From positions 1 through 12,081 of the forward strand of contig JANRJA010000146.1 of NCBI GenBank assembly GCA_033764315.1: a stretch of DNA of 12,081 nucleotides, given 5' to 3'. Positions within the stretch are counted from its first letter, which is position 1. Each line of letters opens with the position of its first letter. The notes beneath the pieces were generated by a model. It saw nothing but the letters and a program-made list of their open reading frames with translations. It was not told the origin of the DNA and ran no database searches. The stretch comes from Oculatellaceae cyanobacterium bins.114 (GTDB lineage Bacteria; Cyanobacteriota; Cyanobacteriia; Elainellales; Elainellaceae). Of this stretch, positions 1 through 11,952 are shown piece after piece. Made by a program: the position numbers and the translations under genes.

Positions 1-1
1 A

Positions 2-901
2 GCGATGATGACCGATGGGCATCGGGTCGAAGTCGTTGCTAATATTGGGGCAGCACCCGAAGCCGAACAAGCCGTCAACGCTGGAGCCGAGGGAGTGGGC
101 TTGCTTCGGACTGAGTTTTTGTTTTTGCAGCGATCGCACCCCCCTTCAGAAGACGAGCAATTCGCGGCATATCAGCAGATGACGCAAGCCCTCAACGGGT
201 TGCCGTTGATCATTCGCACGTTGGATATTGGGGGCGATAAAGCGGTTCCCTATCTAAACTTGCCTGCTGAAGACAATCCCTTTTTGGGAGTGCGTGGCAT
301 TCGCCTCTGTTTGCAACGTCCTGATTTGTTTAAACCTCAGTTACGAGCGATTTATCGTGCAGCTCAAACGGGTTCCGTCAAGATCATGTTTCCGATGATT
401 GCGACCTTAGAGGAACTGCAAGCCGCCAAAAAAATAGCAGAAGACATTCGGCTCGATCTCGATGCTCCCAAAGTTGAGATTGGCATGATGATCGAGGTGC
501 CTTCAGCCGTGATGATGGCAGATGAATTTGCTCAAGAGGTCGATTTCTTCTCCGTCGGCACAAACGACTTGACGCAATATGTGTTGGCGATGGATCGCGG
601 TCATCCTGCTCTGGCAAAACAAGCGGATGGATTGCATCCGGCGGTATTGAGAATGATCAACCAAACTGTCAAGGCAGCCAGTGCTTCTGGTAAGTGGGTA
701 GGGGTTTGCGGCGGCATGGCAGGCGACCCCAAAGGGGCAGCAATTTTGGCGGGGTTGGGCGTGAGCGAACTCAGTATCAGCATCCCCAGTGTGGCAGCAG
801 TCAAGGCGAAATTGCGCAGCCTCTCTTTGGCTCAAACCCAAGACCTGGCAACACGAGCGTTGAAATGTCGCAATGCTCAAGAAGTGCGTGCCCTATTGTG
901 A
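2..901 (+). CDS. ptsP: PTS Enzyme I (PEP-protein phosphotransferase), C-terminal PEP-binding domain; 5'-truncated by the window, possibly the end of an EIIA-HPr-EI multiphosphoryl transfer fusion
   Basis: Frame is open from base 2. EI motifs seen: GVGLLRTEF, RTLDIGGDK, EDNPFLGVRGIRL, IMFPMI, MIEVPSA, DFFSVGTNDLTQY and WVGVCGG (active-site Cys). The N-terminal His domain is not in the window. The fusion is inferred only from the EI-fruK-fruA gene order. Confidence 0.95.
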   Translation, partial: AMMTDGHRVEVVANIGAAPEAEQAVNAGAEGVGLLRTEFLFLQRSHPPSEDEQFAAYQQMTQALNGLPLIIRTLDIGGDKAVPYLNLPAEDNPFLGVRGIRLCLQRPDLFKPQLRAIYRAAQTGSVKIMFPMIATLEELQAAKKIAEDIRLDLDAPKVEIGMMIEVPSAVMMADEFAQEVDFFSVGTNDLTQYVLAMDRGHPALAKQADGLHPAVLRMINQTVKAASASGKWVGVCGGMAGDPKGAAILAGLGVSELSISIPSVAAVKAKLRSLSLAQTQDLATRALKCRNAQEVRALL

Positions 902-905
902 GTGC

Positions 906-953
906 GCTGAATTGTGGCTGTGCTGAATTGTGGCTGTGCTGAATTGTAGTTGC
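906..953. repeat. Tandem 16-bp direct repeat, 3 copies
   Basis: GCTGAATTGTGGCTGT at 906-921 and 922-937 (identical), and GCTGAATTGTAGTTGC at 938-953 (degenerate), starting just after the EI stop codon. Confidence 0.9.
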
Positions 954-999
954 ACTGCACTGTGATTGCTTTTGAAACCTTTAATATCTCCATGTCATC

Positions 1000-1938
1000 A
1001 TGCCTCCCAATATTGCTACGATTACCCTCAATCCAGCGGTCGATCACACCGCTTCCATTCCCCATTTCAAAGCGGGAGAAGTGAATCGGGTAGAGTGGGA
1101 ACAAATTGACCCCGGTGGCAAAGGAGTCAATGTTGCCTCATTTCTCACCGATTTTGGTTTCTCTGTCTCTGTCTCTGGCTTTCTAGGCAAAGACAACGCC
1201 GATCTGTTTCAGCAATTTTTTGAGCAAAAACAGATTCAGAACCGATTTGTGGCGATCGCCGGTAAAACGCGAGTCAACATCAAAATCATTGATGCGGCTC
1301 AAAATCAAGTGACGGATATCAACTTTCCAGGGCAGACTCCCACAGCAGCCGATGTGGTGAATCTGTATGGGGCGATCGCTGATTTGACTCCTACCTGTGA
1401 CTGGTTTGTGTTGTCGGGCAGCGTTCCATCGGGTTTGTCACCAGATATTTACGGCAAATTAGTGGCTCACCTAAAAGCCCAAGACAAAATTGTGGTGCTG
1501 GATGCCAGTGGTGAGAGCTTGCGCCAAGCCATTTCCTTTACGCCTTACGCGATCAAACCCAACATTGATGAGTTGCAAGAACTCGTTGGGCACTCCCTTG
1601 TCGGAGAAAAGGTAATTGCTCAAGCCGCCCAAACCTTGGTGAATCAAGGCATTCACTCAGTTATTGTGTCGATGGGATCTAAAGGAGCCATTTTTGCAGA
1701 GGCAGATCAGACGCTGCTGGCTCGTCCTCCTCACATTGAGGTGTTGAGCACTGTTGGTGCGGGGGATGCGATGGTGTCAGGACTGATTACCGGAAAACTG
1801 AGAGGCTTATCGCTTGCTGATTGTGCCCGACTGTCAACCGCCTTTTCCATCGGCGCACTCACTCAAGTCGGCCCCCGCCTTCCCCCTGTCAAAGTCATCG
1901 AATCCTTCATGGACACCGTCGAGATTCAACCCTTGTAA
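1000..1938 (+). CDS. fruK: 1-phosphofructokinase (PfkB/ribokinase family)
   Basis: 312 aa with TITLNPAVD, PGGKGVNVA (PfkB signature 1), GFLG, TRVNIK, LSGSVP, LDASG, IKPNIDEL, VSMGSKGA and STVGAGDAMVSG (signature 2). It sits between EI and a fructose-family EII. Confidence 0.93.
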   Translation: MPPNIATITLNPAVDHTASIPHFKAGEVNRVEWEQIDPGGKGVNVASFLTDFGFSVSVSGFLGKDNADLFQQFFEQKQIQNRFVAIAGKTRVNIKIIDAAQNQVTDINFPGQTPTAADVVNLYGAIADLTPTCDWFVLSGSVPSGLSPDIYGKLVAHLKAQDKIVVLDASGESLRQAISFTPYAIKPNIDELQELVGHSLVGEKVIAQAAQTLVNQGIHSVIVSMGSKGAIFAEADQTLLARPPHIEVLSTVGAGDAMVSGLITGKLRGLSLADCARLSTAFSIGALTQVGPRLPPVKVIESFMDTVEIQPL

Positions 1939-1971
1939 AGGGAAGAATAAAAAACGAAAAATGAAGAGAGC

Positions 1972-2162
1972 AAGAGGTTGGTAGTCAACGGTTGTCACCA
2001 GAAACACCCGCACTGGGAATCGATGCGAAGCGCGCCTGACTACCGTTCCTACACACCTTGCGGAGGGAGTCTGAGGGACGCGCTTCGTCTCTCAGCAAGG
2101 GGGATTGGGGGAAGATTCCCCCAAGGCTTGGTTCTCACCCTTAAAGAAATAACCAACCTCTT
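1972..2162. mobile_element. MITE-like non-autonomous element, about 190 bp
   Basis: Perfect 11-bp terminal inverted repeats AAGAGGTTGGT (1972-1982) / ACCAACCTCTT (2152-2162). Internal hairpins CTGAGGGACG-cgctt-CGTCTCTCAG (2071-2095) and TTGGGGGAA-ga-TTCCCCCAA (2105-2124). GC-richer than its flanks, with no credible ORF. Mobility is inferred. Confidence 0.65.
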
Positions 2163-2220
2163 TCACCATAAACACTGCTCGTACCATTTCTAGAAATTTG
2201 AGACACGCATCACTATCTCC

Positions 2221-2248
2221 GCAAGGGCGTTTCGCCAAACGTCCCTAC
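2221..2248. repeat. REP-like imperfect palindrome (GTAG-type on the - strand)
   Basis: GCAAGGGCGTTT-CGCC-AAACGTCCCTAC. The arms are complementary at 9 of 12 positions and the element ends in CTAC (GTAG on the other strand). Confidence 0.55.
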
Positions 2249-2336
2249 CGCTGATCTGTAACTGTGATTGGTTGAATTGGCATAAAACCATTACGACTGA
2301 AAGCCCCAACATTCCATCAACAAACCATAACCCTTT

Positions 2337-4151
2337 ATGAAACCCATTCAAAAAATTGTCGCAGTCACCGCCTGCCCCACCGGAATTGCCCACACCTTTA
2401 TGGCCGCCGAAGCCTTGAGAAAAACTTCAGAAGTCATGGGTTACGACATCACCGTCGAAACGCAGGGTGCTGAGGGAGTCAAAACGCCCCTCTCTAATCA
2501 AGATATTGCTGAAGCCGATCTCGCCATTATCGCAGCAGATATTCACGTTGACCCTGCTCGTTTTGCGGGTAAACCCGTGTATGCCACCTCCACGAGCAAC
2601 GCCATCCGCAATACCAGAGCCGTGATTGAAGGGGCGATCGCCGAAGCACAGCAAGCCGACGTGGAACCCGTTACACCAACTCCTTCTGTCCCTGTGACTG
2701 CATCTGCCACTCCTGCCACGACCTCATCCAATGCTCCCAAACATCTCGTGGGTATTACCTCCTGCCCCACTGGCATTGCTCACACCTTTATGGCAGCTGA
2801 AGCCCTGCGCAAAGCAGCCGTTGAACTCGGTCATGAAATTAAAGTTGAGACTCAAGGATCAGTCGGAGCCAAAAACCAATTGACCCCAGAGGATATTGCT
2901 GAAGCTGATGCTGTCGTCATTGCCGCCGACACCCATGTTGATCTATCGCGGTTTGCGGGTAAGCGACTCTATGAAACCTCCACAAAACAGGCACTCAAAG
3001 CAGGCAAGACCATCATTAATGAAGCCCTAGCCCTACCAGAGCCAACGGCACAAGCAGCAACCGCAAACGGTCAGGGTGACTATTTACAGTCCGTGCAGCG
3101 AGCCAAAGCCGAACAAAGTGCCAAGCGATCCGGTCCCTATCGGCACTTGTTAACAGGCGTATCTTATATGTTGCCTGTGATTGTGGCAGGGGGTTTAATC
3201 ATTGCCCTCTCGTTTGTATTTGGGCTAAATCCAGAACCGGGTACTATTGGTGCAGCCTTACTGCAAATTGGCGGAGAATCTGCTTTTGCGCTAATTGTGC
3301 CAGTGCTCTCAGGATTTATTGCCTTCTCCATCGCCGATCGCCCTGGTTTAGCTCCTGGTCTAATCGGTGGCATGTTAGCGGCTAACTTGGGTATGGGGTT
3401 TTTAGGGGGCATTTTATCGGGTTTTTTAGCAGGATATATTGCCTTGCTGGTGCGCGACAAAGTAACGTTACCCGCCAACTTAGAAGGACTCAAACCCGTT
3501 TTAGTTATTCCGTTGTTATCTACACTAGCCGTAGGATTGTTGCTAGTGTTTGTCTTTGGTGCCCCCGTAAAAGCGATTTTGGATGGATTAACTGCATTTC
3601 TGCAAAGCATGGGTCAGACTAATGCCGTCATTCTCGGCTTGATTTTGGGTGGCATGATGGCCGTCGATATGGGTGGCCCGGTCAACAAAGCGGCGTACAC
3701 CTTCTCAGTCGGCTTATTGGCGAGTAATGTGTTTGCCCCGATGGCAGCAGTTATGGCAGCAGGCATGACCCCTCCCTTGGGATTGGCATTAGCCACCTTA
3801 ATTGCAAAACGGCAATTTACCACAGAAGAAAGGGAAGCCGGACGAGTCGCCACGGTTCTCGGTATTGCCTTTATTACCGAAGGAGCCATTCCCTTTGCAG
3901 CGAAAGACCCAATTCGGGTATTGCCTGCCTGCATTCTAGGTTCAGCGGTTGCCGGAGCACTCTCGATGCTATTTGGCTGTACGTTGCGTGCGCCTCACGG
4001 GGGCATTTTTGTACTGGCAATTCCCAATGCGGTCAGTCACGGTGGGTTATATGTTGTGGCGATCGCCGCTGGCACTTTGATAACAGCTGTGGCGATTACC
4101 CAACTCAAACGTTGGAAATCAACTCCAACAACAGCCGTTGCAGAAGGGTAA
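2337..4151 (+). CDS. fruA: PTS fructose-family permease, EIIB-EIIB-EIIC
   Basis: 604 aa. Two IIB(Fru) domains, each with CPTGIAHTFMAAEAL and VETQG, joined by a Pro/Thr/Ala linker. The hydrophobic IIC domain has HLLTGVSYMLP, IAFSIADRPGLAPG, DMGGPVNKAAY, FITEGAIPFAAKDP and APHGGIF. Confidence 0.96.
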   Translation: MKPIQKIVAVTACPTGIAHTFMAAEALRKTSEVMGYDITVETQGAEGVKTPLSNQDIAEADLAIIAADIHVDPARFAGKPVYATSTSNAIRNTRAVIEGAIAEAQQADVEPVTPTPSVPVTASATPATTSSNAPKHLVGITSCPTGIAHTFMAAEALRKAAVELGHEIKVETQGSVGAKNQLTPEDIAEADAVVIAADTHVDLSRFAGKRLYETSTKQALKAGKTIINEALALPEPTAQAATANGQGDYLQSVQRAKAEQSAKRSGPYRHLLTGVSYMLPVIVAGGLIIALSFVFGLNPEPGTIGAALLQIGGESAFALIVPVLSGFIAFSIADRPGLAPGLIGGMLAANLGMGFLGGILSGFLAGYIALLVRDKVTLPANLEGLKPVLVIPLLSTLAVGLLLVFVFGAPVKAILDGLTAFLQSMGQTNAVILGLILGGMMAVDMGGPVNKAAYTFSVGLLASNVFAPMAAVMAAGMTPPLGLALATLIAKRQFTTEEREAGRVATVLGIAFITEGAIPFAAKDPIRVLPACILGSAVAGALSMLFGCTLRAPHGGIFVLAIPNAVSHGGLYVVAIAAGTLITAVAITQLKRWKSTPTTAVAEG

Positions 4152-4239
4152 AAGAACCATGTAACCAGGAGCTGATGTGGGTTAAAAAATTGATTTGGTA
4201 AAAGAAGTGCGAGTGAGATGCCCGTACGACGATTCAAAT

Positions 4240-4283
4240 TGTCATAAGTACGCCATAACTCTGTCATCTTTTATTCCTAAAAT
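4240..4283 (+). promoter_or_regulatory. Candidate OmpR/PhoB-family-regulated promoter: three direct repeats at 11-bp pitch plus a -10 box
   Basis: TGTCAT (4240-4245), CGCCAT (4251-4256) and TGTCAT (4262-4267), then 10 bp later TAAAAT (4278-4283). Confidence 0.45.
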
Positions 4284-4403
4284 AAACAGAGTCTTAATTT
4301 TAACTAGACGGTGGTGATGAGAAACGTTTAAGCCTAACTCCAATCTCAGAGGAGCAGGTGTTTTCTTTGAAACCACAGCCACTGTCTTGCAGGAAATATA
4401 AAG

Positions 4404-4559
4404 ATGATGCCTTTTATCCTTTCGATCGCTGCTAGTCTGTTGATGATCGGGTCGCTGGTCGTTATTGTGATCAAAATCATCTATGTTCTATTCCCTGACC
4501 CAAGCAACGACAGACAGCGTTCTAAGTCGAGAGCCTTTAAGCATCTTGAGAAGTTTTAG
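4404..4559 (+). CDS. Small single-pass membrane protein, 51 aa, not in the ORF track
   Basis: Hand translation: MMPFILSIAASLLMIGSLVVIVIKIIYVLFPDPSNDRQRSKSRAFKHLEKF*. Hydrophobic N-terminal stretch followed by a basic tail. AGGA at 4391-4394 is 9 nt before the ATG. Confidence 0.55.
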   Translation: MMPFILSIAASLLMIGSLVVIVIKIIYVLFPDPSNDRQRSKSRAFKHLEKF

Positions 4560-4581
4560 GGATCAGGCATGACATCAGCTA

Positions 4582-4788
4582 TTAACGCCGATGTTCCTTA
4601 CCCATATACCAGGTGTTGCAATTCTCTAAATCTTCTAGCTTTTGGGTTGCCTGCTCAATAGCCGCGTTGACCTGAGCTAAAAAATCTTGCCAAACCCAGA
4701 CAGGACTAAAACAGAAATAATCCGTAGACCTACAGAGTGATGGTTCATCGTAAATCCTCCAAATTTGAGAATGGATAAACACTATCAT
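4582..4788 (-). CDS. Hypothetical small protein (about 68 aa if it starts at MIVFIHSQ)
   Basis: 3' part of track ORF 4582..4929. The longer start overlaps the CAP gene. The C-terminus looks like an amphipathic helix (DFLAQVNAAIEQATQKLEDL). No family recognised. Confidence 0.3.
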   Translation of the reverse strand: MIVFIHSQIWRIYDEPSLCRSTDYFCFSPVWVWQDFLAQVNAAIEQATQKLEDLENCNTWYMGKEHRR

Positions 4789-4874
4789 CCAGTTGTGATG
4801 AAGTGATGTTGAAGGTGTGTCAATGAGATGGTGTCTGCGAAATATAGCAATTGTCTTGACAGTTGCTATAGGTT

Positions 4875-5498
4875 TTATAGCGATCGCATCAATAGCTGAG
4901 TGAAGTAATAGGTATTGCCTTTGCGCCACACCCCAATCCCCATTTCTCGATACTCAGACCGCAAAATATTACGGCGATGTCCTGGGCTATTCATCCACCC
5001 TGTGACCGCTGCAGAAGCAGGCTCAGAGAGATTGGTACCTTTAAATAAATTCTCCCCTAAAGCAAAATAAAAGATTCCAACCGAGCGGACTCGATCTACC
5101 ATCGTGTCTCCTTCAGGAGCCGTATGGCTAAAGAAGTTTTGCTCCGCCATGCGTTGACTATAGCGTCTCGCGACTTGAGCTAATTTAGGATTATTTTTTA
5201 AGGGACTCAATCCACGTTGTTGTCGAATGACATTAATTTGCTGCCAAACTTCTGCCTCCAGTTGAGCTTCGGTGGCCGATTGGGTTGCATCGGCGATCGC
5301 TGACGGTGGCGGCGCGGGTAAAGGAAAAGTTGGCAAAATTGGGGGAATATCACGAATCAAATCACAACCCGACAATAGCAGAAGAGTGATTACCCCCCAG
5401 AGAGAGCGACTTCGCATCACGCCTGAGCATCCTCGTTGTAATTGGTCTTGCCAGCAGAGCGGCTTTTTCTCATTTGGTTTCATCTCACTTGAGATCAT
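4875..5498 (-). CDS. CAP/SCP (YkwD-like) domain protein, probable lipoprotein
   Basis: Motifs INVIRQQRGLSPL, LAQVARRYSQRMAEQNFFSHT, GENL and WMNSPGHRRNIL...GIGV...YFTQ. Signal peptide with lipobox MRSRSLWGVITLLLLSG-C. The real start may be the ATG at 5417, although the ATG at 5498 overlaps the upstream stop (ATGA). Confidence 0.9.
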   Translation of the reverse strand: MISSEMKPNEKKPLCWQDQLQRGCSGVMRSRSLWGVITLLLLSGCDLIRDIPPILPTFPLPAPPPSAIADATQSATEAQLEAEVWQQINVIRQQRGLSPLKNNPKLAQVARRYSQRMAEQNFFSHTAPEGDTMVDRVRSVGIFYFALGENLFKGTNLSEPASAAVTGWMNSPGHRRNILRSEYREMGIGVWRKGNTYYFTQLLMRSL

Positions 5499-8104: not shown

Positions 8105-11100
8105 TCACGTTAGCTCCCGAAACTGCCAGGGCAGAGAAATGGAGAACCTGACCCAGTCCTTTTCACTCGTAACAGAAATATTGCCTTGCAACAGGTCTAC
8201 TAGTTTTTTGACTAATGCTAATCCCAACCCGGTTCCTCCATGTTTCCAGGGGTCACTGTTGGGAATGCGGTAGAACTTTTCAAAAATGCGATCGCACTCT
8301 GTAGGCGGAATATTGGCTCCAGAATTGTGAATTGTAATTTTCACAAATGGATCAACCTCATCGACAACGACCCTAATGGATTCACGCGGTGGCGTATACT
8401 TACAAGCATTTTGCAATAGTTCGGTCAAAATGCGGTCAAGACAGGAAGGGTCTGTTGTGAGAGATGGTAAATCAGAAGGGATCTGAACCTGGATGTGTTG
8501 CTGTGCCTGTTGAGTGCGTTCGAGAAATGGCTCTACAATTTGAGGAATCCAGGTTTGTAAGGTCAGTTGAGCCAAGTTGAGTGACAGGGTATCCGCTTCT
8601 AATCGTGTTAAATCTAATAAGTCATTAATCAAGCCGGTCTCTCGTTGGCATTCCTGATGCAAGATTTGGAGATATTGCGTGGCTTTTACCCGGAACTGGG
8701 GTGAGGGGTCGCTAACAGACGTGATAACCTCTTGGCTTTGGGTAAACAGGCTCAACTGCAACATCTGAGTTGCCATTCTAATGTTGGCCATCGGTGCCCG
8801 TAGTTCATGGGAAACCGTACTCAAAAAATCATCTTTGAGATGATTGAGACGTTCCAACTCTATGACTTGAGCTTGGGCTGTTTGATAGAGCCGAGACTGA
8901 CGCAGGGCGATCGCACATTGATTGGCTACCTGTTGCACCAATCGCACTTCCTGCTCATTAAAACGGGTTTCAGAGGGTTTAAACAGCCACAAGTCGCCCA
9001 ACACTCCCTGATTATCTCGAATGGGACAAGCCAGAATGGTCAGCAAAAGTTGATCTGAGCGGATCAAATCAGGTTTTAAGTTGCAAAACTGACACAGTTG
9101 ACCCTGCATCAAATGAATATAGACATCTGGGTGGGAAGCCGTTGCGATCGCAAAGGTTTGTCCTTGAACTGAACTGAAGTTTTGAGTAAATTCGTAGACA
9201 ATCGTAGACGTGGTCTGATCAGGGTTATAAATTCCTGCATCACAACACTCTAAATTCAATCCTGCGGCTAGTTCATTGACTACCGTTTGCAAAATTTGCT
9301 GCTCATCTAAGCTATCGCGAACTTTATCGGTAATCCGTTTTAACAGGGCTTCAAACTCTAATAGTTGTTGCAGTTGTGCCGTGCGCTCATTGACTTGTTG
9401 CTCCAACGTTTCATAGAGATGCACATTTTCAATGGCGATCGCAGTGGCATCGGCTAACGATTTCAACAGGTTTACCTCTCCAGGCGTTGGGGTATAGGGA
9501 GTTGCCCAATAACTGCCAATCGCACCCAGGGGTTGAGTCCCACCCAGCGGTACCATGATGAGGCTTTTAATAAACGTAGCTTGATACAGCTCGCTAGAAA
9601 TTCGCGGATCATTACAAATATCAGGAACGATAGCTGGCTCACGATGCTGTATGACCCAACCACTGATGCAATTTTCTATCGGAAATCGTTGCCCTTTCCA
9701 AAGAGGAGCGATCGCATCCTCTTCAACGTAATGACACATATCTCCATCGCGCAAAACAAATGTGGCACCATCGGTTGCCATTAATCGACGAATGGTGCCT
9801 TGCACCGCCGTCAGAATCGTTTGTATGTCACGGGCAGCTACCAATTGCTGAATGGTTTGAATGAGATATTGGAGTTGTTGGTTGAGGCGATAGGCTTCGA
9901 TCTCGATTTGCTTGCGATCGGCTTCAATTTTTTTACGTTCTGTAATATCGTTTGCCATCGCAACGACGAGGTTTCTGTTATCTAAGAGTTGCCCTAATGG
10001 AGAAGCATAAACATCCCAGATGCGGGTTTCACCCATCGATGTTGTCACCGCATATTCGCCCATAGCCGTTGGGTGTTTTAATGGAAACACCTGGCTGATT
10101 TTGTCTTGCACCTGGTCTTTATGAGTGCCATAGGCTTTTTCAAGCCAATCATCAAGCGTTGGAATATCAGAAATGGTATATCCTGTACTGTCTACCCAGG
10201 CTTGGTTAAGCTGGAGCACTTCGCCATCTTCTGTGTGTAGCATGATGGGCAAAGGGGCATTGAGAATTCCCAGGCGAAATCGTTCTTCACTCCCTTCCAA
10301 TGCTATCTCTGTCTGTCTGCGATCGGTAACATCAAGGATGACTCCCAACATACGTTGGGGTTGCCCAGATGAGTTATAAATGGCCTGCCCTTTGCCAATT
10401 AACCAACGAATGTCACCATTTGGATGAATGACCCGATAATGCGCTTCGTAACAAGTTTGGTCGGTCAAGGCGGATTGAATAGCTAACTCAACCGCATGCA
10501 AATCATCAGGATGCACGCGATCGCACCAAGTTTGATAACTGACCTCCGTGGTTTCTGGATCTAAGCCAAGTAAGCGAAAATGGTTTTCATTCCAGATCAC
10601 CTGATTGGTTTGGGGGTTCCAATCCCAGGTTCCAATCTGACCAAAGTCGAGGGCTAGACGCAGTTGTTCTTCACTGACTCGTAACTTGGCTTCAGTTTGG
10701 TGTAGTTGGGTCTGTAATCGTACCGTTTCAAGGACTCCACTCACCGCTATTTCAAGTGTCTCTGGGGTGATCTGCCCTTTAACCAAATAGTCTTGTGCAC
10801 CTGCTTTAATCACTTTAACTGCGATCGCCTCATTGCCCTGACCAGTCACCACAACAATCGGCAAAACAGAGTGCTGTATTTGTTGTTGCAGGTGAGATAG
10901 AAACTCTAACCCATTTAAGTCAGGCAATTGATAGTCTAGAATCACCACATCAGGGCGGCTCTGTTGCCATTTCTCCAACCCTTCATATCCCAGAGCAGCT
11001 TCTACTAATATGTAAGACCGTTCTTTGTTGCTCAATAAATAGCGTCGATACAGTTCTCGATCTTCTGGAGAGTCATCAATGATCAAAATAGTGCAGGGTT

Positions 11101-11110
11101 GTTGACTCAT
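8105..11110 (-). CDS. Cytoplasmic hybrid sensor histidine kinase: REC-PAS-PAS-GAF-GAF-HisKA-HATPase_c
   Basis: 1001 aa. REC: ILIIDD...DVVILDYQLPDLNG...VTG...DYLVK. PAS: GTWDW...VHPDD...DVTDR and a second ending NDITER. GAF1: LWKGQRFP...SLIMVPL. GAF2: LACPI...GDLWL...VANQCAIALRQ. H-box FLSTVSHELRAPM, N-box ELLQNACKYTP, F-box IFEKFYR and G-box GGTGLGL. AGGAG upstream. No TM segment. Confidence 0.95.
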   Translation of the reverse strand: MSQQPCTILIIDDSPEDRELYRRYLLSNKERSYILVEAALGYEGLEKWQQSRPDVVILDYQLPDLNGLEFLSHLQQQIQHSVLPIVVVTGQGNEAIAVKVIKAGAQDYLVKGQITPETLEIAVSGVLETVRLQTQLHQTEAKLRVSEEQLRLALDFGQIGTWDWNPQTNQVIWNENHFRLLGLDPETTEVSYQTWCDRVHPDDLHAVELAIQSALTDQTCYEAHYRVIHPNGDIRWLIGKGQAIYNSSGQPQRMLGVILDVTDRRQTEIALEGSEERFRLGILNAPLPIMLHTEDGEVLQLNQAWVDSTGYTISDIPTLDDWLEKAYGTHKDQVQDKISQVFPLKHPTAMGEYAVTTSMGETRIWDVYASPLGQLLDNRNLVVAMANDITERKKIEADRKQIEIEAYRLNQQLQYLIQTIQQLVAARDIQTILTAVQGTIRRLMATDGATFVLRDGDMCHYVEEDAIAPLWKGQRFPIENCISGWVIQHREPAIVPDICNDPRISSELYQATFIKSLIMVPLGGTQPLGAIGSYWATPYTPTPGEVNLLKSLADATAIAIENVHLYETLEQQVNERTAQLQQLLEFEALLKRITDKVRDSLDEQQILQTVVNELAAGLNLECCDAGIYNPDQTTSTIVYEFTQNFSSVQGQTFAIATASHPDVYIHLMQGQLCQFCNLKPDLIRSDQLLLTILACPIRDNQGVLGDLWLFKPSETRFNEQEVRLVQQVANQCAIALRQSRLYQTAQAQVIELERLNHLKDDFLSTVSHELRAPMANIRMATQMLQLSLFTQSQEVITSVSDPSPQFRVKATQYLQILHQECQRETGLINDLLDLTRLEADTLSLNLAQLTLQTWIPQIVEPFLERTQQAQQHIQVQIPSDLPSLTTDPSCLDRILTELLQNACKYTPPRESIRVVVDEVDPFVKITIHNSGANIPPTECDRIFEKFYRIPNSDPWKHGGTGLGLALVKKLVDLLQGNISVTSEKDWVRFSISLPWQFRELT

Positions 11111-11379: not shown

Positions 11380-11710
11380 GGTAGAGTGTGAAGCAACCTC
11401 TGCATCAGTGTACCCATCCTGATAAAGAAAAAACAGAAACTCCTGATGGCTGTTAATACAATGATGAATAAATCGCTATTCAGGAATATATTCTATATTT
11501 ATCAGCTTATAACCATAGTTGTAAATTGCTTGAACTCAGCATCAAAATTTTAACGAAAGAGTTGATAGTGGCAGGGGGATAAGGGTAGAACTCCCATTCG
11601 CTTGCTCTAACTATTTTGATGATGACTCTATAGTGATGTGTAAGTTGCTTCAGTATAAGGGGGCTGATTGACTGACAAATCTTTAAGTTGCAGAAAACTT
11701 GAATAGAGTC

Positions 11711-11875
11711 ATACCTATTTGAGCTGAAAACGTGCAAACGCGAACCCTCCCAACCTTCCCTTGCTAAGGGGAGGTGCCGTAGGACGTTTGGCAAAGCTCA
11801 GACATTCGGCGAAGCTCAGTCGAGCCGTCGAGCCGCAGTGGGGTCAAGTGCAAGGTTCGCTGTTTAAATGGGTAT
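11711..11875. mobile_element. MITE-like palindromic element containing a nested 2 x 26-bp insertion
   Basis: Imperfect terminal inverted repeats ATACCTATTTGAGC (11711-11724) / GTTTAAATGGGTAT (11862-11875), matching at 11 of 14. Inner inverted repeat GCGAACC (11740-11746) / GGTTCGC (11854-11860). Hairpin ACCTTCCCTT-gct-AAGGGGAGGT (11753-11775). AABB repeat at 11783-11834. Confidence 0.7.
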
Positions 11876-11952
11876 TAGTCTGTGCATGTGGACTTCGATC
11901 GGGTCGGTGCGGACTCATCCGCCAGCCACTGACTATAAAGATAGCTTTCAAT

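Follow-up and report, generated by a model that had tools for sequence, protein, structure and literature searches.

The genes at the locus

The stretch of DNA analysed in this work (hereafter the window) is the whole of a 12,081-bp contig, JANRJA010000146.1 or C147 in our numbering, from the assembly of Oculatellaceae cyanobacterium bins.114 (GCA_033764315.1), and it begins with genes of a phosphoenolpyruvate (PEP)-dependent phosphotransferase system (PTS): the 3′ part of fruB, encoding the PEP-binding C-terminal domain of Enzyme I (EI), fruK for a 1-phosphofructokinase, and fruA for a fructose-type permease. A first-pass annotation, made from the letters of the contig, had described three intact-looking PTS genes in one orientation, and profile matches place all of them where it had put them, intact and on the + strand. 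The assembly amounts to 6.64 Mb in 251 contigs, with a completeness of 90.7% and an estimated contamination of 0.42%, and its host is a cyanobacterium, as shown by a HIP1 density of 1.6 per kb and by 15 matches to phycobilisome families and four to those of the photosystem II reaction centre. The evidence set out below makes it very probable that a complete three-gene fructose PTS, fruB-fruK-fruA, is resident in this filamentous-type cyanobacterial genome.

The part of fruB found in the window (1-901, + strand, in frame from 2 to 901 with its stop codon at 899-901) is open at its 5′ end and encodes 299 residues, which score 392.4 bits against PEP-utilizers_C (PF02896) and 360.7 bits against the PTS Enzyme I model TIGR01417, whose cut-off is 341.7. 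Since the latter match is limited to model positions 262-564 of 565, the frame reads as an EI truncated where the contig begins, of which the C-terminal part is left. Another contig of the same assembly (C212:1-1571, - strand) carries the 5′ part of the gene, which encodes the EIIA(Fru), HPr, EI N-terminal and mobile His domains. EIIA_2 (118.1 bits), HPr (83.6) and the EI N-terminal domain (96.4) each occur once in the genome, all of them in a single open frame at the start of C212, where the domains follow one another as EIIA_2, HPr, PEP-utilisers_N and the mobile His domain; in Pfam terms, this frame scores 78.6 bits for HPr (PF00381) and 115 bits for the EIIA of the fructose/mannitol class (PF00359). 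The domains of EI were all found, PF05524 and PF00391 on C212 and PF02896 in the window, and FruB is the sole EI found in the assembly.

The two parts also meet at the level of the nucleotides, as the first 18 bases of the window are identical, in frame, to the reverse-complemented end of C212. Joined by script, they give a FruB of 817 residues with no internal stop, which aligns over its whole length with the FruB of a same-genus genome at 87.3% identity (818 columns, two gaps). At the join point, fruB is uninterrupted in every one of the 13 other cyanobacterial loci and of the 20 loci fetched from the family. Because window and C212 join into one FruB, which carries a single EIIA_2 domain, the operon appears to have the proteobacterial-style layout fruB(EIIA-HPr-EI)-fruK-fruA, with a FruB of the single-IIA type. 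The first-pass annotation had read the layout as EI-fruK-fruA, and both its EI C-terminal domain and its gene order stand; what it had taken for a stand-alone EI gene is, by the overlap with C212, the 3′ end of an EIIA(Fru)-HPr-EI fusion. EIIA and HPr, on whose presence in the genome that proposal had hung, are both there, fused upstream in the same gene.

The second gene, fruK (1000-1938, + strand, 312 residues), matches the 1-phosphofructokinase equivalog model TIGR03828 over its full length with 327.8 bits, above a cut-off of 292, and its best solved relative is the 1-phosphofructokinase 9qv0 (E 8e-64, residues 3-311 of 312), so that its earlier identification as a 1-phosphofructokinase is confirmed. 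The third, fruA (2337-4151, + strand), encodes a permease of 604 residues and of IIB′-IIB-IIC make-up, in which the IIB′ domain with the Cys motif TACPTGIAHT covers residues 5-97 (2349-2627, +), the IIB domain with the phospho-acceptor Cys motif TSCPTGIAHT residues 136-229 (2742-3023, +), and the IIC membrane domain residues 256-595 (3102-4121, +). It scores 439 bits against the fructose IIC model TIGR01427 (cut-off 157.55, residues 256-590) and 226.2 bits, in two stretches, against the fructose IIB model TIGR00829 (cut-off 76.85), both of which bear out the IIB-IIB-IIC(Fru) permease seen at first pass, and no other PTS EIIC was found in the assembly. The Cys motif of IIB stands at the same place in 52 of the 58 FruA rows compared, the other six giving no match in the first 260 residues scanned. 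The motif of IIB′ is kept by the window's subclade and by several proteobacteria, and lost in Rhodobacter capsulatus and in the Nodosilinea group of cyanobacteria.

Alignment with solved structures extends this agreement to the short motifs of every component. Among the domains of FruB encoded on C212, GGPTSH of EI aligns with GGRTSH of the solved Escherichia coli EI, AIPHG of EIIA with AVPHG of IIA-Mtl (1a3a, E 1.3e-32), and GLHARPAT of HPr with GIHARPAT of solved HPr; in the C-terminal domain of EI, VCGGMAGDP faces MCGEMAGDP of 6vbj (E 2e-92) and GTNDLTQY is retained as well; TSCPTGIAHT of IIB aligns with the solved fructose/mannose IIB domains 2r48 and 2r4q, and FruK retains GAGD. These conserved motifs of EI, HPr, EIIA, IIB and FruK correspond to the catalytic residues of their families. 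The operon is also under purifying selection, the ratio of nonsynonymous to synonymous substitution rates (dN/dS) against same-genus copies being 0.038 for the EI C-terminal part, 0.077 for FruK and 0.056 for FruA, at synonymous distances of about 1.1-1.5, which are close to saturation.

Native status, distribution and descent

The operon is native to the cyanobacterial genome, because HIP1 density, tetranucleotide composition, genome-specific repeats, upstream synteny and dN/dS all agree. Seventeen HIP1 sites (GCGATCGC) lie in the window, five of them within the PTS genes (1.2 per kb over 4,151 bp), and the mean is 1.21 per kb over 13 cyanobacterial copies of the operon as against 0.10 per kb over 67 non-cyanobacterial loci. 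The tetranucleotide correlation of the operon with the rest of the genome is 0.828, compared with 0.839 ± 0.056 for random chunks of 4,151 bp. Two repeats in the spacer between fruK and fruA match 42 other places in the genome and occur, among others, on contigs C8 and C187, both of which carry phycobilisome genes. Upstream of fruB, ppsA (92% identity), ynfA (86%) and a desaturase gene (79%) are syntenic with the same-genus genome.

It is against this evidence that one has to set the idea of a contaminant or chimera, in which the PTS genes would come from a heterotrophic bacterium in the sample. The contig is indeed short (12 kb), begins within a gene and belongs to an assembly of many contigs, and no synteny with the same-genus genome was found downstream of fruA. 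However, the HIP1 density of the operon is that of cyanobacterial and not of non-cyanobacterial homologous loci, its tetranucleotide make-up is typical of the genome, its repeats recur across the genome, including next to phycobilisome genes, its exact overlap with C212 leads to genes whose synteny with the same-genus genome is kept, a further 25 genomes of the family, of which several are closed or almost closed, carry this operon, and the estimated contamination is low. A foreign origin is in our opinion scarcely conceivable, and it is rejected here on HIP1, tetranucleotides, shared repeats and the C212 overlap with its synteny; the chimeric or non-cyanobacterial contig against which the first-pass annotation had warned left no sign of foreign DNA in any of these or in the upstream gene order. 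A misjoin may exist inside the contig downstream of fruA, but it would leave the operon unaffected.

Distribution was followed in a phylum-wide sample of 401 genomes, the window's genome included, and in the window's own order, which consists of one family of 57 genomes. A fructose IIC above cut-off is found in two of the 401 (the window's genome and one other, G029), and any PTS EIIC above cut-off in six. In the window's own family, 26 of 57 genomes and 17 of 25 genera have a fructose IIC above cut-off, as do 22 of the 38 high-quality genomes; in the family of G029 it is present in two of 14 genomes, both in one genus of three. The operon is thus common in its own family and rare elsewhere in the phylum, and the first-pass annotation, which had spoken of the sugar uptake of this strain, was right about the operon, which is, however, a family-wide trait and nothing peculiar to one strain. 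Synechococcus elongatus, taken as a control, matched none of the PTS families searched, though it did match the phycobilisome and reaction-centre families.

A scan of named genomes, covering 20 of 64 parts of the set, found at least 12 cyanobacteria-labelled loci with a FruA 67-86% identical to that of the window, besides a locus labelled ‘uncultured bacterium’ with 17 HIP1 sites in 10 kb, evidently cyanobacterial as well, and a large protein collection gave 119 further clusters, besides the protein of the window itself, at 74-88% identity, in which all of the 26 organism-named rows are cyanobacteria. Cultured strains in public records carry close homologues, and the genes have already been labelled by automated annotation in many cyanobacteria, the public names of the close homologues being ‘PTS fructose-like transporter subunit IIB’ or ‘PTS system fructose-specific IIC component’. 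The order fruB-fruK-fruA, with fruK between the other two, is kept at each of the 33 related cyanobacterial loci that were examined.

Other PTS genes turned up along the way. A second sugar PTS exists in the same family, as in G017 (L114:2806-7539), where an EIIA(Glc)-HPr-EI fusion of 852 residues stands beside a glucose-family IIC-IIB permease of 640 residues, which scores 636.9 bits against the glucose-specific IIBC model TIGR02002 (cut-off 591.8). A glucose-type EIIB is present in 31 of the 57 family genomes, though neither in the window's genome nor in its genus-mate, and the tally for the family is 11 genomes with the fructose PTS only, 14 with the glucose type only, 17 with both and 15 with neither. 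Many other cyanobacteria have EIIA(Man)-HPr-EI fusions with no permease (e.g., L113:6539-9052 in G098 and L115:4611-8562 in G029), and in G029 the fusion gene sits two genes upstream of a Dak1 (dihydroxyacetone kinase) gene. An EI N-terminal domain above cut-off occurs in 35 of the 401 genomes of the phylum sample, and 26 of these 35 belong to a single family (f6, 45 genomes). It is thus the permeases that are rare in the phylum, and not the phosphoryl-transfer proteins of the PTS.

For the descent of the operon we have two trees of FruA, both quick and unrooted. The first, a maximum-likelihood tree of 58 rows from which six broken or cut open reading frames (ORFs) and 18 surplus Bacillota/Fusobacteriota rows had been dropped, unites the 13 cyanobacterial rows and the HIP1-rich ‘uncultured’ row in one clade, with a support of 100 in the Shimodaira-Hasegawa-like approximate likelihood ratio test (SH-aLRT); the adjoining clade is proteobacterial (Rhodobacter, Roseospira, Chromatiaceae, Accumulibacter), the pairing of the two having a support of 85, unstarred. 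The second, of 39 rows, adds 20 genomes of the family and includes 10 non-cyanobacterial rows; the cyanobacterial clade holds (SH-aLRT 97) with all 10 of these outside it, and the Nodosilinea group, G029 together with Symplocastrum, and a metagenome-assembled genome labelled Coleofasciculaceae nest inside the diversity of the family. To judge from these trees, the most likely history begins with one gain, in this family or before it, from a proteobacterium, and continues with repeated losses and a few transfers within the phylum; the identity of the donor and the order of events are tentative.

Route of the sugar, regulation and neighbourhood

The protein families suggest how such a system might work, and the steps that follow are drawn from them, whereas domain content, motifs, gene order, native status, conservation and purifying selection are shown by the analyses above. 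PEP would phosphorylate a His of the EI domain of FruB, and the phosphoryl group would then move within FruB, to the His of the HPr-like domain and from there to the His of EIIA(Fru), which would pass it on to FruA, at the Cys of its IIB domain. The group would finally reach fructose while the sugar crosses IIC, yielding fructose-1-phosphate, which FruK, with ATP, would turn into fructose-1,6-bisphosphate, entering metabolism at the node of aldolase and fructose-1,6-bisphosphatase. As already proposed at first pass, fructose entering in this way would bypass hexokinase and 6-phosphofructokinase. That the substrate is fructose, the direction of the flux, and a role in scavenging external fructose for mixotrophic or dark growth are what we infer from such a route; the claim made at the level of the genes is sound, whereas that made at the level of physiology is plausible.

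A PEP synthase, whose gene adjoins fruB, could turn the pyruvate released back into PEP. This gene, ppsA (NF005057, 1211 bits), is divergent and lies 504 bp upstream of the fruB frame, and its adjoining position suggests pyruvate recycling. A divergent ppsA beside fruB is present, besides this genome, in one of the 13 cyanobacterial loci and in two of the 20 family loci; as the adjacency is confined to the closest relatives, PEP synthase was rejected as a conserved partner of the system. The four ppsA-fruB intergenic regions (C212/L012 at about 1840-1900; L121, L128 and L020) share a conserved block of about 60 columns. It was also noticed that this block contains a promoter-like −35/−10 pair (TTGAGC, about 17 nt, a TATAT-rich stretch) some 300 nt upstream of fruB.

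Several observations weigh against a complete and working fructose PTS, and they are given here together with the readings they would favour. One concerns fruB itself, which in this assembly is split over two contigs, so that its intactness and its being a single polypeptide are inferred from the overlap. Another is that FruA, with 737.1 bits, stays under the cut-off of 793 of NF007984, the equivalog model of the E. coli-type FruA, and is therefore best filed, as a predicted protein, as a fructose-family permease and not as an equivalog of E. coli FruA. The permease might then carry another sugar (mannose, another ketose or a fructose-like compound), with the kinase acting on its phosphate, a reading also favoured by scores of FruA on mannosylglycerate and fructose-like permease models and by the first of the two public names of its close cyanobacterial homologues, the one NCBI gives them, which calls them only fructose-like. 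Because FruA misses this cut-off, the identity of the substrate rests on the linkage to fruK and on the position in the tree. On both counts fructose is indicated, since FruK passes the cut-off for 1-phosphofructokinase and finds its best solved match in such an enzyme, the order fruB-fruK-fruA is constant across those 33 loci, and the adjoining clade includes R. capsulatus, transporters in this kind of gene context internalising fructose according to section 12 of a 2008 survey (PMC2405797). We consequently regard another substrate as unlikely and keep fructose as the sugar in what follows.

The operon could, on the other hand, be silent or decaying in this particular genome, if the insertion of repeats had uncoupled fruA from its promoter. 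The spacer between fruK and fruA (1939-2336) is 398 nt long, whereas the same-genus genome has about 24 nt there and locus L016 has 17 nt, and it holds two dispersed repeats, at about 1995-2154 and 2170-2288, of which the first has at most 18 and the second at most 11 overlapping copies elsewhere in the genome at E ≤ 1e-8. The stretch 1990-2139, in the first repeat, folds to a long hairpin (−62.9 kcal/mol, z −2.8) and resembles a miniature mobile element, while the second repeat folds no better than its shuffles. Two such insertions could weaken the co-transcription of fruA. The operon has, moreover, proved dispensable, 16 of the 38 high-quality genomes of the family having no fructose IIC, and in one member of the family fruA is broken in two frames (L046:6001-7503, with an ORF of 514 residues; G417:C1:2032913-2033916, with two separate IIC matches). 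Yet the three reading frames in this genome are intact and of full length, dN/dS is at 0.04-0.08, and no terminator-like site was found in the spacer, the counts of promoter-like and terminator-like sites over 850-4700 of the window being no higher than in shuffled sequence. Silencing or decay seems to us very unlikely.

PTS proteins have regulatory roles in many bacteria, and the system could be mainly a regulatory phosphorelay, sensing carbon status and not serving net uptake of sugar. No dedicated regulator is adjacent, which may be counted for this reading and against that of a catabolic operon: Pfam searches of 56 flanking ORFs at the 13 cyanobacterial loci found no LacI/DeoR-type regulator beside the operon, and its flanks vary from locus to locus. 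Against a regulatory relay speak the full IIC permease and the catabolic kinase, always linked, the lack in FruB of the GAF domain of the EI-Ntr type (by domain search), and a layout that is that of catabolic fru operons, all of which makes it highly improbable when compared with a catabolic fructose PTS. Two known kinds of PTS with other tasks were considered and rejected: the nitrogen-type regulatory PTS (EI-Ntr, NPr, EIIA-Ntr), given the absent GAF domain and the linked IIC permease, and the PTS-dependent dihydroxyacetone kinase of DhaM type, no match for its EIIA-man being found in the window's genome at its completeness of 90.7%.

A more speculative reading goes further. In one family of thin filamentous cyanobacteria, PTS uptake (of fructose here, of glucose in many relatives) might be a main route to mixotrophic and dark growth, run as a light-assisted cycle in which PEP synthase would regenerate PEP from pyruvate at the expense of photosynthetic ATP, and the phosphorylation state of FruB might in addition inform central metabolism of carbon status, a role that PTS proteins have in heterotrophs. 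Taken as a whole this is a tentative and rather doubtful scheme. In a narrower form, the operon offers a hypothesis for the use of sugars by some soil and subaerial filamentous cyanobacteria, with carbon entering as fructose-1,6-bisphosphate and not by way of hexokinase. As a native and self-contained uptake cassette, with its own EI and HPr, it might also be moved into model cyanobacteria.

Beyond fruA, the genes of the contig are all on the other (-) strand, and the profile search tied none of them to sugar use; they include genes for a CAP-domain protein, a HAD-IIIA hydrolase, a PpiC-type isomerase and unassigned ORFs. Another, at 8105-11110 (- strand), encodes a hybrid sensor kinase of 1001 residues with the domains receiver-PAS-PAS-GAF-HisKA-HATPase, whose stretch 8160-9418 resembles paralogues on other contigs of the same genome. 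Immediately after fruA, positions 4152-4929 hold a non-coding stretch of 430 bp and an ORF of 115 residues with no family match; the guanine-plus-cytosine content falls to about 43% there, and synteny with the same-genus genome stops at the fruA stop codon. Another dispersed repeat (11703-11879, at most eight overlapping copies on other contigs) lies inside a short unassigned ORF (11507-11794) near the end of the contig. Scanned with Rfam, the window and C212 1-14000 gave no family at its gathering score.

Comparison with known systems

Cyanobacteria have long counted as a group without the PTS; the 2008 survey describes them as having none (PMC2405797), and a 2023 review of cyanobacterial heterotrophy names, in its available portions, only sugar uptake of the Glc/GlcP and Frt types (PMC10515406). 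A full-text search of the literature, which left subscription journals mostly outside, found no description of a sugar PTS in cyanobacteria, so that an earlier mention is possible; the first-pass annotation had reckoned with the system being already described, and no such paper was found in the literature searched. GlcP, of the major facilitator superfamily (MFS), and FrtABC, of the ATP-binding cassette (ABC) type, have the same job as the one proposed here, hexose uptake for mixotrophic or heterotrophic growth, as far as the parts of that review go (PMC10515406). They are, however, unrelated proteins with a different coupling to energy, and they deliver free sugar that needs hexokinase, whereas a PTS delivers fructose-1-phosphate at the cost of PEP. 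The DhaM-type EIIA(Man)-HPr-EI fusions of other cyanobacteria have the HPr and EI domains in common with FruB, but belong to a different IIA class and come with no permease, and none was found in the window's genome.

Amongst bacterial fructose systems, section 12 of the same survey has transporters in a fruBKA-type gene context internalising fructose in E. coli, R. capsulatus, Salmonella and Xanthomonas, and gives the FruA of R. capsulatus as an experimentally established fructose permease (PMC2405797). The FruB of Xanthomonas, Ralstonia and Deinococcus, a single IIA-HPr-EI, is likened to ours by description: a fusion with an EI of its own, it occurs in linkage with fruK and fruA, as here; that of Pseudomonas (IIA-IIA′-HPr-EI) is likewise fused with its own EI, but its description includes an extra IIA′ domain, compared with the single EIIA_2 of the window's FruB (PMC2405797). 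E. coli FruBKA has the same order fruB-fruK-fruA and a duplicated IIB in FruA. The enterobacterial FruB (FPr), in contrast, is described as having lost EI and as relying on the general EI (PMC2405797), whereas the cyanobacterial FruB carries its own.

The closest likeness is to the fructose PTS of R. capsulatus, which consists of the same three genes in the same order (loci L033 and L035), with a FruB that is likewise an EIIA(Fru)-HPr-EI fusion and a FruA that is likewise IIB′-IIB-IIC, and which falls in the clade adjoining that of the cyanobacterial FruA. Identity to its proteins is 60% for FruA, 49% for the N-terminal part of FruB, 67% for the EI C-terminal part and 43% for FruK. The differences are that its IIB′ has no Cys motif, whereas the FruA of the window retains it, and that its host is a purple bacterium, while here it is an oxygenic phototroph.

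In conclusion, the system is closest to the purple-bacterial fruBKA and is not a new kind of system, and its mechanism is that of the textbook. The novelty lies in the host and in the pattern, that of a trait found at family level where the 2008 survey describes the phylum as having no PTS (PMC2405797): one cyanobacterial family commonly holds a complete fructose PTS under purifying selection, many of its members have a glucose-type PTS besides, and PTS permeases are almost absent from the remaining phylum. Set beside the known systems, the finding alters the distribution and the physiology of sugar PTSs, and not their principle.

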